The notes under the pieces were generated by a model that saw nothing but the letters and a program-made list of their open reading frames with translations, was not told the DNA's origin and ran no database searches. A DNA stretch of 64,000 nt from an uncultured Thermococci archaeon (lineage in GTDB: Archaea; Methanobacteriota_B; Thermococci; Methanofastidiosales; Methanofastidiosaceae). Where the stretch lies: assembly GCA_964521515.1 (NCBI GenBank), contig CAZFRW010000001.1, forward strand, positions 7,639-71,638. Direction: 5' to 3'. Shown in pieces: positions 7,575-10,661 of the stretch. The translations under genes were made by a program, and so were the position numbers. Within the stretch, counting starts at the first letter, position 1. Each line of letters begins with the position of its first letter.

Positions 7575-8033
7575 GTGAGTATTATTACAACAGTATATGA
7601 TGTTCCTGCTGATATGCTAATTGATGGTGTTAAGGAAGAGTTGAAAAACGACAAGAATTTGACACCACCCCAGTGGGCAACCTTTGTTAAGACCGGATCA
7701 TCAAGAGAGAAAGTTCCAGACCAGCAAGACTGGTGGTATATAAGAGCGGCAGCTATAATGAGAAAGGTTTACGTTTACGGACCAGTCGGCGTTGAGACAT
7801 TGAGAGTCGACTATGGTGGCAAAAAGAACAGAGGCGTAAAACCTGAGAAGTTTAGAAAATCATCTGGTGCAATTATTAGAAAGATATTTTCACAGCTTGA
7901 GAAAGGCGGATACATAACGAAAGCTGAGAAGGGAAGAATAATATCCTCCCAAGGAATGTCTCTTCTTGACAAAAAGGCTTTAGAGATTAAGTCCAAGATA
8001 GCAGTAGATATACCTGAACTTAATAAATATTAA
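7575..8033 (+). CDS. rps19e: 30S ribosomal protein S19e
   Basis: TTVYDVPADMLI... N-terminus typical of S19e. A GTG start is listed at 7575; an ATT at 7581, following the GAGAGGTGA SD-like sequence, would give M-ITTVYDVPAD instead. Confidence 0.85.
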   Translation: MSIITTVYDVPADMLIDGVKEELKNDKNLTPPQWATFVKTGSSREKVPDQQDWWYIRAAAIMRKVYVYGPVGVETLRVDYGGKKNRGVKPEKFRKSSGAIIRKIFSQLEKGGYITKAEKGRIISSQGMSLLDKKALEIKSKIAVDIPELNKY

Positions 8034-8045
8034 TAAAGTGATTTT

Positions 8046-8375
8046 TTGCCGGACGAAGCTGAAGCCATAAAGAAAAAGAAGTTAGAAGAACTTCAACAGC
8101 AAGCGTTAGCTGATGAAAAGGCTAGGCAGCAGAAGGTTGAATTTGAACTTCAGAAGCAGCAAATATTACGTGCACTTCTTTCCTCTGAAGCCAGAGAGAG
8201 GCTTACTAGGGTAAAGATGGCAAGAAAAGAAGAAGCCGAGCAGATAGAACTTTTATTGATTCAGCTTTACCAACAAGGAAAAATCACAAAGCAAGTTGAC
8301 GATGCGATGTTAAAACAGATCCTCGAAAAGGCCCTTATGAGCAACAAGAGGGAGTTTAAGATTCGAAGGATCTAG
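8046..8375 (+). CDS. PDCD5/TFAR19-like dsDNA-binding protein (MTH1615 family)
   Basis: TTG start. 109 aa, with the acidic/Q-rich helix KKKLEELQQQ and a conserved C-terminal helix. Commonly adjacent to S19e in archaea. Confidence 0.7.
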   Translation: MPDEAEAIKKKKLEELQQQALADEKARQQKVEFELQKQQILRALLSSEARERLTRVKMARKEEAEQIELLLIQLYQQGKITKQVDDAMLKQILEKALMSNKREFKIRRI

Positions 8376-8380
8376 TCGTT

Positions 8381-8989
8381 ATGGAAACGGCTGTCTTATT
8401 TTCTGGGGGGAAGGATTCCTCCCTTACTAATATTTTTCTAAAAAAAATACTTCCTTGTGAGATTACAAATTACACAATAACATTTGGTATAAACTCCAAC
8501 TGGAAGTATGCAGAAGAGACTGCAAAGGCACTTGAATTTCCCTTTAAACTTTATGAAATTGATAAAGAGCTGCTTGAGAAAACCGTCGATAGAATTGTGA
8601 GGGACGGATTTGCAAACGATGGCATTACATTTCTCCACAAATGGGTGATAGAGTCTTTCTTGGAAGATGTAAATGTTGACATGATCGCAGATGGAACTAG
8701 AAGGGACGACAGAAGCCCTAGATTAGAGCTTTCTGATATGAGGCGCATTGAAGATAAGTATGATGTGGCATACGTTGCGCCCCTTATGGGGATAAGCTAC
8801 AGGATATTAAAACCGATATGTCACGCCTTATTTATCATAGAGGAAGGGCCTACCGACCTTATTAAAAAAAGTGATTATGAGTCTGAGATAAAAGACTTAA
8901 TGAAACAAAGAGGCCTTTATCCTTATGATTTTTTCCCAAAACACTCCCAGAGCAGAGTAATAGGGTATAAAGACCGATACGCATTCTAG
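8381..8989 (+). CDS. PP-loop (N-type) ATP pyrophosphatase; possibly a diphthine-ammonia ligase (Dph6)-like or tRNA-thiolation enzyme
   Basis: Exact SGGKDS PP-loop at residues 8-13; 202 aa. It lies 5 nt after the PDCD5-like gene in a translation-related operon. Confidence 0.65.
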   Translation: METAVLFSGGKDSSLTNIFLKKILPCEITNYTITFGINSNWKYAEETAKALEFPFKLYEIDKELLEKTVDRIVRDGFANDGITFLHKWVIESFLEDVNVDMIADGTRRDDRSPRLELSDMRRIEDKYDVAYVAPLMGISYRILKPICHALFIIEEGPTDLIKKSDYESEIKDLMKQRGLYPYDFFPKHSQSRVIGYKDRYAF

Positions 8990-9149
8990 TGATTATTTTA
9001 ATTAAAACAATTGTTTTTTCTAAATCCTTTATCTTTTAATATTTTTAATGATAAACTATTTAATTAAATGTTACCTTTATTGTTTAACATTATTAACTAA
9101 AATGATTAACTATATCTTCTCATCAATTACCATAACTAGTGGTGATCAT

Positions 9150-9605
9150 ATGGCAATGTTCAATGAGACTTATGCGAAATTAAAGAATCAGACTGAACTT
9201 GAGATTCTAAAGACTATTAGAACAGCGCTCTATGAAGTTGGATATCCAGGTGGCAAGTATCTTGAAAAACTACAGATAATTTCTGCCATATACCAACTTT
9301 ACAGGGCAAAGGATTTGGTCAAAGAGATTAAAAATAAAAGTGATTACCAGTTTAGAGATCTTATTACCTCCATTTATGTTGATATAGATTCACTTTCCCG
9401 AGAGTTTGAATATACGAGAGACCACCCTTCAGTTGAAAGATGCGATATTGCAAGAGAAAAATTATTTGGTGTTCGGGATAAAATGGTGCAGCTATGTAAA
9501 AATCTCGGCGTAACAGATGGAGAGATTTCAAATATTCTAAGGGACTACACTCCAAGACCAAATGAAGATCTTACAAGTTACCGCAAGAACACAAATAGGA
9601 GATAA
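9150..9605 (+). CDS. hypothetical protein
   Basis: The ORF track starts at 9048. ATG 9150, preceded by GGTGA four nt upstream, is the more likely start (MAMFNETYAKL...). No recognisable family. Confidence 0.45.
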   Translation: MAMFNETYAKLKNQTELEILKTIRTALYEVGYPGGKYLEKLQIISAIYQLYRAKDLVKEIKNKSDYQFRDLITSIYVDIDSLSREFEYTRDHPSVERCDIAREKLFGVRDKMVQLCKNLGVTDGEISNILRDYTPRPNEDLTSYRKNTNRR

Positions 9606-9644: not shown

Positions 9645-9885
9645 ATTGTTTGTCGCCCACCTAACTAACTCCGAAGCTCATCGTTCGGATATCCTCTCTT
9701 CCTTCGGTAACTCTCGTGGTGGGCTGAGCCCCATCATTGTAACCCCCGATTCATCTAAGCGATATGCCACATCACCGGGTGACCGTTGATAGGGTATTAC
9801 CCTTGTATTTGCTGTTTCACTCATAGAAGAAAGATTTCCTCTCATGAACCCCTCGCTACAAGGGATAAAAAATAAAATATATTTT
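9645..9885 (-). ncRNA. candidate structured non-coding RNA of unknown class (about 240 nt GC-rich island)
   Basis: A sharp GC-rich patch in an AT-rich intergenic region between convergent genes. It has several stems, including GCCCACC/GGUGGGC enclosing about 56 nt and an 11-bp imperfect hairpin. G.U wobbles in two stems would be A.C mismatches on the plus strand, so the minus strand is favoured. No tRNA T-loop is present. There is a partial resemblance to RNase P CR-IV (UAGAUGAAU), but no P4 pairing partner. Confidence 0.35.
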
Positions 9886-9896
9886 GGTATAAATAG

Positions 9897-10661
9897 TTAC
9901 CTATTGAACTTATGGCCACATTCTGGGCAGAAGTTAGACGAAGGCTGGACATTTTTTTTACATTTAGGGCAGTAAAAGTAGTCTTTATCCGAGGGTTTAA
10001 ATGGTGAGGCCTTTGACATTTCTCCCAGTCTTTTTGTCAAGAAGTATACTAGAATTATTAAGATCGGTAAGAATAGGAATGCCAATATAGTTTGAGTGAA
10101 TAGGACAAAATCGAATAGACCGTGTGAGAACGCAGCTATCGCAAGACCTTTATAGACTAGGCTATTATTCTTAGGTGAAGAAAATTTCGCCTTTCCTACG
10201 TAATACCCAACTATACCTGAAAATCCTGCGTGGCCTAAACAACCTGTTATTGCCCGCATGAGAATCAGCGAAGCGCCATACTGTGATATATATAAGAAAT
10301 TTTCAAAAGTTGCAAATCCTAAAGCTGCTACTACAGAATATAACATTGCATCGATTGGCTCATTAAATTCCTTTGACTTTAGGGCATATACCCTCATAGC
10401 CAAATATTTTGAGATTTCCTCAACAGGCCCTATTACAAAAAAAGCCCCCAAAAACAGTAAAAGAATCCCTGCTTCATCAATAGAGAATGGCATCAGCAGA
10501 CTATTTAGTATACCTGCTGGAATTGTTGAAATCATTCCTAGGATAAATGTTATTATAATCAGTTTTTTTGGCTCAGGTTCATATTTATCTTTTTTATAAA
10601 AATACCATACCCAGAATAGTCCTGGGGCAAGCGCAATAGCCAGAAGTGTTAGAGCGTCCAT
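9897..10661 (-). CDS. PrsW-family intramembrane metalloprotease with C-terminal zinc ribbon
   Basis: Multi-TM protein with the EExxK-like GPVEEISKYLA and FSHGLFD motifs of PrsW. C-terminal CPKCKK...CPECGH zinc ribbon. Confidence 0.65.
   Translation of the reverse strand: MDALTLLAIALAPGLFWVWYFYKKDKYEPEPKKLIIITFILGMISTIPAGILNSLLMPFSIDEAGILLLFLGAFFVIGPVEEISKYLAMRVYALKSKEFNEPIDAMLYSVVAALGFATFENFLYISQYGASLILMRAITGCLGHAGFSGIVGYYVGKAKFSSPKNNSLVYKGLAIAAFSHGLFDFVLFTQTILAFLFLPILIILVYFLTKRLGEMSKASPFKPSDKDYFYCPKCKKNVQPSSNFCPECGHKFNR

Follow-up and report, generated by a model that had tools for sequence, protein, structure and literature searches.

A probable Pab40/HgcG-type box H/ACA guide RNA gene with three hairpins in a Methanofastidiosum contig

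Introduction

The HgcG family of box H/ACA guide small RNAs (sRNAs; Rfam RF00064, 'Pab40'), represented in the Thermococcales by HgcG/Pab40, Pho40 and Pf7, is built of three H/ACA motifs, and we describe here an element with three such motifs in the same order within a 64,000-nucleotide (nt) stretch, hereafter the window, of the Methanofastidiosum contig CAZFRW010000001.1. The 234-nt Pab40 transcript of P. abyssi begins at the first position of motif 1, has a kink-turn (K-turn) or kink-loop (K-loop) in each upper stem and carries a terminal ACA box. Its validated targets in P. abyssi 23S ribosomal RNA (rRNA) are U2588 for motif 1 and U2016, in helix 69, for motif 3. Motif 2 is poorly behaved, with two conformations and low activity, and uses U1932 in P. 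abyssi; Pab40 is also reported not to install both helix 69 pseudouridines in vitro. Position 2678 of P. abyssi has been predicted as the motif 2 target for Pf7 and Afu-4 (Muller et al.). Afu-4, a three-hairpin H/ACA RNA of Archaeoglobus fulgidus, shares with Pab40 its proposed targets for motifs 1 and 3; it belongs to another order, and its likeness to our element is known from the literature only.

More distant relatives share parts of this design. In Haloferax volcanii and related haloarchaea, HP2 is a homologue of Pf7 stem III for which alternative pairings have been proposed to guide modification of both position 1915 and position 1917 in Escherichia coli numbering (Ec1915 and Ec1917), and HP1 is described as a homologue of stem II that guides Ec2586 (Grosjean et al.). 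Yeast snR191 and human U19 apply the same guide principle to the same conserved helix 69 targets, but as two-hairpin hinge-tail RNAs (H box and ACA box) with no K-turn and a box-to-target distance of 16 nt. Eukaryotic H/ACA small nucleolar RNAs work with Nhp2 in place of L7Ae. Archaeal C/D box sRNAs share the L7Ae-binding K-turn, with its RUGAUGA strand; they guide 2'-O-methylation together with fibrillarin and Nop5 and are laid out as terminal C/D and internal C'/D' boxes, a layout absent from the element described here.

The element is very probably a three-hairpin box H/ACA guide sRNA gene, the Methanofastidiosum counterpart of Pab40/HgcG, Pf7 and Afu-4, and presumably a guide for pseudouridylation of 23S rRNA. 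It adds a member to a known family and does not represent a new RNA class, and both the mechanism and the family are already well known. GTDB places the Methanofastidiosum lineage in the class Thermococci, adjoining the Pab40-carrying Thermococcales, so that a Pab40-type RNA is to be expected in Methanofastidiosum. The literature that we searched yielded no paper linking Methanofastidiosum with H/ACA RNAs and pseudouridylation, and the finding extends the three-motif guide type of Pab40, Pf7 and Afu-4 to an AT-rich methanogen genus outside the organisms from which the family was described.

Identification by covariance-model search

Rfam covariance models were searched first at their gathering thresholds and then at E-value thresholds (E<=0.05 for the whole window and E<=10 for a 501-nt region around the element). 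HgcG is the sole Rfam family found in the 64-kb window at E<=0.05, with 45.5 bits (E=2.9e-9), a score well below the gathering score of 77, at which the window has no Rfam match of any kind. The match is full-length, running from position 1 to the last of the 276 model positions, is confined to the minus strand (9916..9646), and reaches E=2.3e-11 when just the 501-nt region is searched. Four related loci give the same lone HgcG match at 41-49 bits and E values of 1e-8 to 1e-10, and despite its sub-threshold score the match is far from chance.

Guide sequences and the terminal box are brought into register by the Infernal alignment. In hairpin 1, GCGAGG and GCAAA align with GcGAgG and GCGAc of the model; in hairpin 3, GAGUUA and AGUUA align with GGUUAG and UGUUA; and the terminal ACA is aligned with the ACA of HgcG. 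Motif 1 has the same 5' guide as Pab40, GCGAGG, and the motif 3 guides of both RNAs are of the GUUA type.

A first-pass annotation of this DNA had proposed an unannotated structured RNA here, favouring the minus strand because of G.U pairs in its stems; the HgcG match, the conservation and the covariation bear out the former proposal, and the restriction of the match to the minus strand and the G.U pairs the latter. Its further suggestion that the RNA might be new largely falls with a significant, full-length match to a known family and with the hallmarks of an H/ACA RNA, although the score stays below the curated threshold. That threshold evidently misses the Methanofastidiosum lineage, whose sequences could be used to widen the model.

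Conservation and covariation

Homologues of the flanking PrsW and DUF7411 proteins led to 20 syntenic Methanofastidiosum contigs, and in 19 of these the interval between PrsW and the gene of unknown function on its other side is readable (in the remaining contig, L002 in our own labelling, the sequence stops about 80 nt past the PrsW stop codon). The same element is present in 19/19 readable contigs, which collapse to just six distinct, closely related RNA sequences; two more look-ups of relatives yielded no new variant. Identity among these variants is 90-96%, against 49-54% at PrsW third codon positions, which are saturated.

The pattern of substitution is strongly uneven along the RNA. Varying columns number 0/42 in the guide cores, 0/20 in the K-turns, 18/92 in the stems and 22/63 in the remainder, a contrast that is somewhat inflated since the guide columns were chosen after the alignment had been viewed. 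Across the variants, 97.1% of the cells of the three-hairpin structure are paired, and five pairs show double compensatory changes, whereas none of 500 shuffles reaches either value and controls with slid partners are only 32-57% paired. The five compensatory pairs are divided between hairpins 1 and 2: in hairpin 1, G-C becomes A-U in the lower stem and C-G becomes U-A in the upper stem, and three others are spread over the two stems of hairpin 2. This comparison, which the first-pass annotation had named as its own check, shows that selection acts on both the structure and the loop sequences of the RNA.

Architecture of the three hairpins

All features below are on the minus strand and are given in window positions. 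The whole gene spans about 220 nt (9648..9866) between presumed ends, an extent supported by the HgcG match and by the sharply bounded conserved block: in the alignment of relatives, conservation starts 1-2 nt ahead of hairpin 1 and stops right after the ACA. The broader extent of the first-pass annotation, 9645-9885, is thus better drawn as about 9866-9648, preceded by a TATA-like box at 9895-9888. In the minimum free energy (MFE) fold of the minus strand, three hairpins with large internal loops follow one another, and RNAalifold concurs, recovering all lower stems as well as the upper stems of hairpins 2 and 3. Each hairpin has a lower stem of 7-8 base pairs (bp), an internal-loop pocket, an upper stem of 5-6 bp and a GA...NNNGA K-turn motif. 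In the published descriptor of the archaeal H/ACA motif, the lower stem H1 has at least 7 bp and the upper stem H2 at least 5 bp, the strands of the internal loop measure 5-11 nt, a K-turn or K-loop is present, and a 3' ANA box stands 14-15 nt from the target (Muller et al. 2008, PMC2377435); all three hairpins conform to its H1/internal loop/H2 part.

Hairpin 1 (9800..9864) is supported by the fold, by compensatory changes and by complementarity to 23S rRNA. Its lower stem of 8 bp, CCCUUGUA/UACAAGGG (9864-9857 / 9807-9800), is followed by a pocket of 6-8 nt on either strand that contains the 5' guide GCGAGG (9856-9851, within the pocket strand GCGAGG(GG)) and the 3' guide GCAAA (9812-9808, within (ACA)GCAAA). 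The upper stem pairs UUCAU with GUGAA plus a G-C pair (9849-9844 / 9820-9814; 5-6 bp) and leads into a canonical K-turn in which GA at 9843-9842 faces UAU-GA at 9825-9821. RNAalifold draws this top as a continuous bulged stem, in a register without a K-turn, and the first-pass annotation had likewise listed an 11-bp bulged hairpin here; the pairing it saw forms the upper part of hairpin 1, for which a K-turn is the better reading. An internal box, AUA (9795..9797), follows the hairpin, 15 nt from the guide base adjacent to the target.

Hairpin 2 (9729..9794) has three compensatory pairs across its two stems. A lower stem of 7 bp, CCCUAUC/GAUGGGG (9794-9788 / 9735-9729), encloses a pocket with the 8-nt 5' strand AACGGUCA (9787-9780) and the 9-nt 3' strand GGUUACAAU (9744-9736). 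Above it lie an upper stem of 6 bp, CCCGGU/AUCGGG (9779-9774 / 9750-9745), and a canonical K-turn with GA at 9773-9772 facing GAU-GA at 9755-9751, the latter within AGAUGA (9756-9751). The box that follows, UCA (9725..9727), departs from the ANA consensus. As a simple K-turn hairpin, the motif also differs from motif 2 of P. abyssi, whose conformation has an extra stem-loop.

Hairpin 3 (9655..9724) is seen in the fold, and its stems and guides are invariant in all relatives. Its lower stem of 7 bp, GCCCACC/GGUGGGC (9724-9718 / 9661-9655), and its upper stem of 6 bp, CCGAAG/CUUCGG (9707-9702 / 9676-9671), flank a 10-nt 5' guide, ACGAGAGUUA (9717-9708), and a 9-nt 3' guide, (A)GUUAGUUA (9670-9662). 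The K-turn or K-loop at its top involves GA at 9701-9700 and GAUGA at 9682-9678, in an ambiguous register. One base (G) past the lower stem stands the terminal ACA box (9651..9653), which is invariant in the six variants.

Several of these stems had been picked out by eye in the first-pass annotation, and the lower stem of hairpin 1 and both stems of hairpin 3 recur in the MFE fold and in RNAalifold. A further mini-hairpin that it listed, GGGU-AAU-ACCC, is unsupported: its bases are taken up by two longer, competing lower stems, those of hairpins 1 and 2, and the stem of hairpin 2 shows compensatory changes. Compared with Pab40, the stems are AU-richer, the internal boxes read AUA and UCA instead of ACA, and the motif 3 pocket has 2-nt insertions on both strands. 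These give a doubled GUUA on the 3' side and, on the 5' side, a longer guide that matches a helix 69 strand of the CUCUC type. The three hairpins are adjacent, as in the Thermococcales and unlike haloarchaeal HP1 and HP2.

If the element acts as established archaeal H/ACA ribonucleoproteins do, the RNA would be transcribed from a TATA-box promoter of its own, L7Ae would bind the K-turn of each hairpin, and Cbf5 with Nop10 and Gar1 would dock on the lower stem and the 3' box. The two strands of each pocket would then pair with 23S rRNA in short helices flanking a uridine, which would be presented unpaired to Cbf5 and isomerised to pseudouridine.

Predicted targets in 23S rRNA

Complementarity was assessed on the 23S rRNAs of other archaea rather than on that of Methanofastidiosum itself, using the rRNA operon of a Halorussus replicon from PLSDB and archaeal 23S genes from a scan of genome contigs, nine archaeal 23S rRNAs in all. 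A first target scan with fixed pocket borders missed sites that were found once a register like that of Pab40 was applied. The RluE, RluC and RluB sites, which we take to be Ec2457, Ec2580 and Ec2605, link the P. abyssi and E. coli numberings. They correspond to the Pab35 targets 2549, 2672 and 2697 (Muller et al. 2008, PMC2377435), and P. abyssi domain V is thus offset by +92, so that U2588 equals Ec2496 and 2678 equals Ec2586. P. abyssi U2016 is the equivalent of H. marismortui pseudouridine 1956 and of Ec1915 (Grosjean et al.).

The target predicted for hairpin 1 is the U at Ec2496 in helix 89, the equivalent of P. abyssi pseudouridine 2588. GCAAA pairs with (U/C)UUGC and CGAGG with CCUCG around the U-A at Ec2496-2497 in 9/9 archaeal 23S rRNAs, of which eight were picked by a pattern containing that very site; the independent Halorussus sequence gives 4+5 bp. 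The register is that of the Pab40 model, with one purine-purine position closing the top of the pocket. None of five rRNA sets offers another site of 4+4 or more contiguous pairs beside this one, which reaches 4-5 + 5 bp, and shuffled guides attain its score anywhere in 1-5 of 500 trials.

For hairpin 3, the predicted target is U1915 of helix 69, perhaps along with U1917. UAAC at Ec1911-1914 is paired by GUUA and U(G)ACUCUC at Ec1917-1924 by GAGAGUUA, so that U1915 and N1916 stay unpaired between the two helices. With its 4+8 bp, the site ranks at the top in archaea whose helix 69 has a CUCUC 3' strand and is the recurrent one in the others. The predicted targets of motifs 1 and 3 would thereby coincide with the validated Pab40 targets U2588 (Ec2496) and U2016 (Ec1915). 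A second register can be read from the sequence, in which UAGUUA pairs with UAACUA (1911-1916) and GAGAGU with ACUCUC, presenting U1917 at 14 nt from the ACA. We raise tentatively, as an idea on the doubtful side, that hairpin 3 may be a dual-register guide, in which the duplicated GUUA-GUUA would let one pocket present either U1915 or U1917, and that, given internal boxes drifted to UCA or AUG, the internal motifs of multi-hairpin archaeal H/ACA RNAs may tolerate loss of the ANA box. If so, a single hairpin 3 motif would install both of the universally conserved helix 69 pseudouridines. The alternative pairings proposed for haloarchaeal HP2 parallel these two registers, as the Ec2586 target of HP1 parallels the U2586 candidate of hairpin 2.

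The target of hairpin 2 is ambiguous: it may be U2586, or helix 69 again, or the motif may be largely closed and possibly inactive. ACGGUC is complementary over 6 bp to GACCGU adjoining U2586, while the 3' strand offers merely four G.U pairs; the alternative is 5+5 bp with helix 69. Two lineage-specific substitutions in this pocket (G to A and U to C) would break the helix 69 pairing and improve the pairing at U2586, and both fit intramolecular pairing equally well. Should the U2586 register hold, Ec2581-2593 of the Methanofastidiosum rRNA is predicted to read GGGUUUAGACCGU. For a closed pocket, the corresponding target, AUUGUAA-UN-ACCGUU, was tried and matched no conserved rRNA site. Taken together, the element predicts pseudouridines in helix 69 and helix 89 of the Methanofastidiosum ribosome, and possibly one beside the peptidyl-transferase centre.

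Two scans of public sequences accompanied these predictions. A scan of genome contigs with TTTGCTACCTCGATGTCGG, the string predicted from pocket 1, returned 112 loci, archaeal 23S genes among them, none of which is named Methanofastidiosum. The metagenome scan for a helix 69 fully complementary to the 10-nt 5' guide of hairpin 3, which has G at Ec1925, gave just four eukaryotic large subunit (LSU) rRNA fragments, so full 10-bp pairing of that guide occurs in no archaeal sequence of that collection. Extension of the contig past both ends of the window revealed no rRNA.

Points against the assignment and alternative explanations

Several observations weigh against the assignment of the element to Pab40-type H/ACA guides. 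Beside the sub-threshold HgcG score, the narrow set of six variants, the choice of guide columns after the fact and the use of other archaeal rRNAs as a target panel, the folding energy is no better than chance, with MFE z-scores of -1.95 for the minus and -1.55 for the plus strand; since folding energy alone is unremarkable, the case rests on the covariance-model match, the conservation and the covariation. Hairpin 3 never varies and so lacks covariation support. The box of hairpin 1 is degenerate: most relatives share the AUA of the window, but L014 has ACA and the L008 group AUG. That of hairpin 2 is UCA in the window and most relatives (5/6 variants), with ACA only in L014. Box-to-target distances would be 15 nt in hairpin 1 and 16 nt (U1915) or 14 nt (U1917) in hairpin 3, against the published 14-15 nt, and hairpin 2 would stand at 17 nt (U2586) or 16 nt (helix 69). 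Its pocket, moreover, can be closed by four pairs.

These last points feed the strongest competing explanation, under which the RNA is H/ACA-derived and only partly functional: hairpins 1 and 3 would act as guides, and hairpin 2 would persist as a structural remnant or have a different task, for instance in assembly or stability. In RNAalifold, the pocket of hairpin 2 is closed through C86-G123, U85.G124, G84.U125 and G83.U126, and two lineages turn a wobble in this pocket into a Watson-Crick pair; the UCA box and the distances of 16-17 nt point the same way, as does the poor behaviour of motif 2 in Pab40 itself. On the other side, the K-turn of hairpin 2, its 5' strand AACGGUCA and the core UACAAU of its 3' strand are invariant, which argues for a sequence-specific role, and the 6 bp between ACGGUC and GACCGU lie by U2586, which is pseudouridylated in H. 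marismortui and has been predicted as the target of the homologous motifs. We regard this partial function as a serious minority view, less likely than not.

That the element belongs to a different class of RNA, whether a divergent RNase P or signal recognition particle (SRP) RNA, a pair of C/D sRNAs or a new structured RNA, is very improbable. The first-pass annotation had entertained a divergent RNase P or SRP RNA, two adjacent small RNAs or a new RNA, and its leads were GAUGA motifs resembling C boxes and short strings resembling, by eye, RNase P CR-IV and SRP helix 8. Neither the window at E<=0.05 nor the 501-nt region at E<=10 yielded an RNase P, SRP or C/D family. The GAUGA motifs sit at K-turn positions inside the hairpins and not as terminal C/D pairs, and no partner arrangement with a D box (CUGA) was seen on reading the sequence, for which no systematic search was made. 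The AUGAUG motifs were a good lead to GA-containing K-turn strands, the L7Ae motif common to H/ACA and C/D RNAs. Three hairpins with pockets and an ACA box fit one H/ACA RNA instead. A transfer RNA (tRNA) or transfer-messenger RNA was also considered and set aside, ARAGORN finding none in the window, in line with the lack of tRNA features remarked on earlier.

Hardly more credible is a passive intergenic element, a bidirectional terminator or a GC-rich spacer with no trans-acting function. The location between convergent 3' ends would suit it, and hairpins could terminate or stabilise the flanking mRNAs; yet a conserved TATA-like box stands in front, the covariance-model match is specific, and compensatory change in the stems goes with unchanging unpaired loops, a pattern contrary to the needs of a mere hairpin terminator.

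Least of all do we credit a small protein gene whose coding sequence would explain the GC richness: a 55-amino-acid (aa) open reading frame (ORF) does exist inside the RNA, on the same strand (9678..9845), and gene callers mark a 55-residue gene at this position in most related contigs, but its called product has no Pfam match on record, the L135/L136/L137 lineage has an in-frame TAA, its 35 variable columns fall 11/14/10 on codon positions 1/2/3 with all but three altering the amino acid, and conservation tracks the guides, K-turns and paired stems and not the reading frame. The ORF is spurious and evolves like non-coding sequence. The earlier statement that no ORF explains the block was accordingly right in substance, although an ORF is there and has been called as a gene.

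Genomic setting and minor observations

The gene calls inside the RNA are a systematic mis-annotation of Methanofastidiosum assemblies, which carry a bogus 55-aa gene where the H/ACA guide RNA gene lies. In our contig set such calls stand at L001:4817-4984, L004:4818-4985, L008:4817-4984, L014:1671-1838, L144:4237-4404 and L145:3730-3897. The practical value of the present analysis lies in correcting this annotation and in the predicted rRNA modification sites; it opens no new question.

As the first-pass annotation had noted, the element forms a GC-rich block between convergent genes: the guanine-plus-cytosine (GC) fraction is 0.52-0.54 in 100-nt windows over 9650-9799 and 0.28-0.33 in the intergenic flanks, and the element lies between the 3' ends of a plus-strand ORF (9048-9605) and of a minus-strand gene for a PrsW-family protease (9897-10661). 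Directly after the PrsW stop codon is a TATA-box-like element, TATTTATA (9888..9895, minus strand). It is the sole invariant element upstream of the RNA and is unchanged in all relatives, in contrast to the variable spacer that separates it from the RNA. About 26 nt lie between its centre and the presumed 5' end of the RNA, as expected for an archaeal TATA box, and this position suggests that TATTTATA may be the promoter of the RNA gene.

The neighbourhood is archaeal, with genes for ribosomal protein S19e, a PDCD5-like double-stranded DNA-binding protein, DUF7411 and DUF432, and its proteins have exact and near-exact matches in public records named Candidatus Methanofastidiosum. The S19e, PDCD5-like and DUF7411 (PP-loop ATPase-like) genes form a tight cluster (7575-8989 on the plus strand of the window; L135:4187-5609) that is kept in every Methanofastidiosum contig seen, and the DUF7411 homologue of P. 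abyssi stands in another context. Synteny with Pyrococcus is not shared at the RNA gene either, as P. abyssi has its DUF7411 gene at 257 kb and Pab40 at 382 kb. Downstream of DUF7411, the gene at 9048-9605 has no Pfam family and seems restricted to the Methanofastidiosum lineage; its true start is probably internal, since the window has an ORF of 185 aa and the relatives have 151-167 aa.

Some records met during the target scans merit mention in their own right. Halorussus vallis 'plasmid unnamed1' (557 kb) carries a complete 16S-23S-5S operon (L016; NZ_CP100001.1, 496500-503600), at which the PLSDB gene table is blank. The helix 69 variant with G at the Ec1925 equivalent (ACUCUCGUAAGG) occurs in the four eukaryotic LSU metagenome fragments (L129-L132) and in no archaeal contig of that collection. 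Dozens of metagenome-assembled genomes (MAGs) titled 'uncultured Pseudomonadales bacterium' (L018, L020, L028, L123, L126 and many others) have a 23S string, UUUGCUACCUCGAUGUCGG, in common with Patescibacteria/CPR genomes; two isolates are named HK-STAS-PATE-15 and HK-STAS-PATE-16, and the record titles may be taxonomically mislabelled.

Upstream of PrsW, two contigs depart from the common gene order. The block of Pyr_redox, DUF432, MscS and RDD genes is inverted in L012 (L012:1-3593 compared with L008:220-3837); the inversion abuts PrsW on its upstream side, the PrsW protein being identical, and is either a rearrangement or a mis-assembly. In L010 (3267-3837), the RDD-domain gene upstream of PrsW is truncated and called as a 115-aa product plus an 80-aa ORF on the opposite strand, which looks like a frameshift or a pseudogene in one population.

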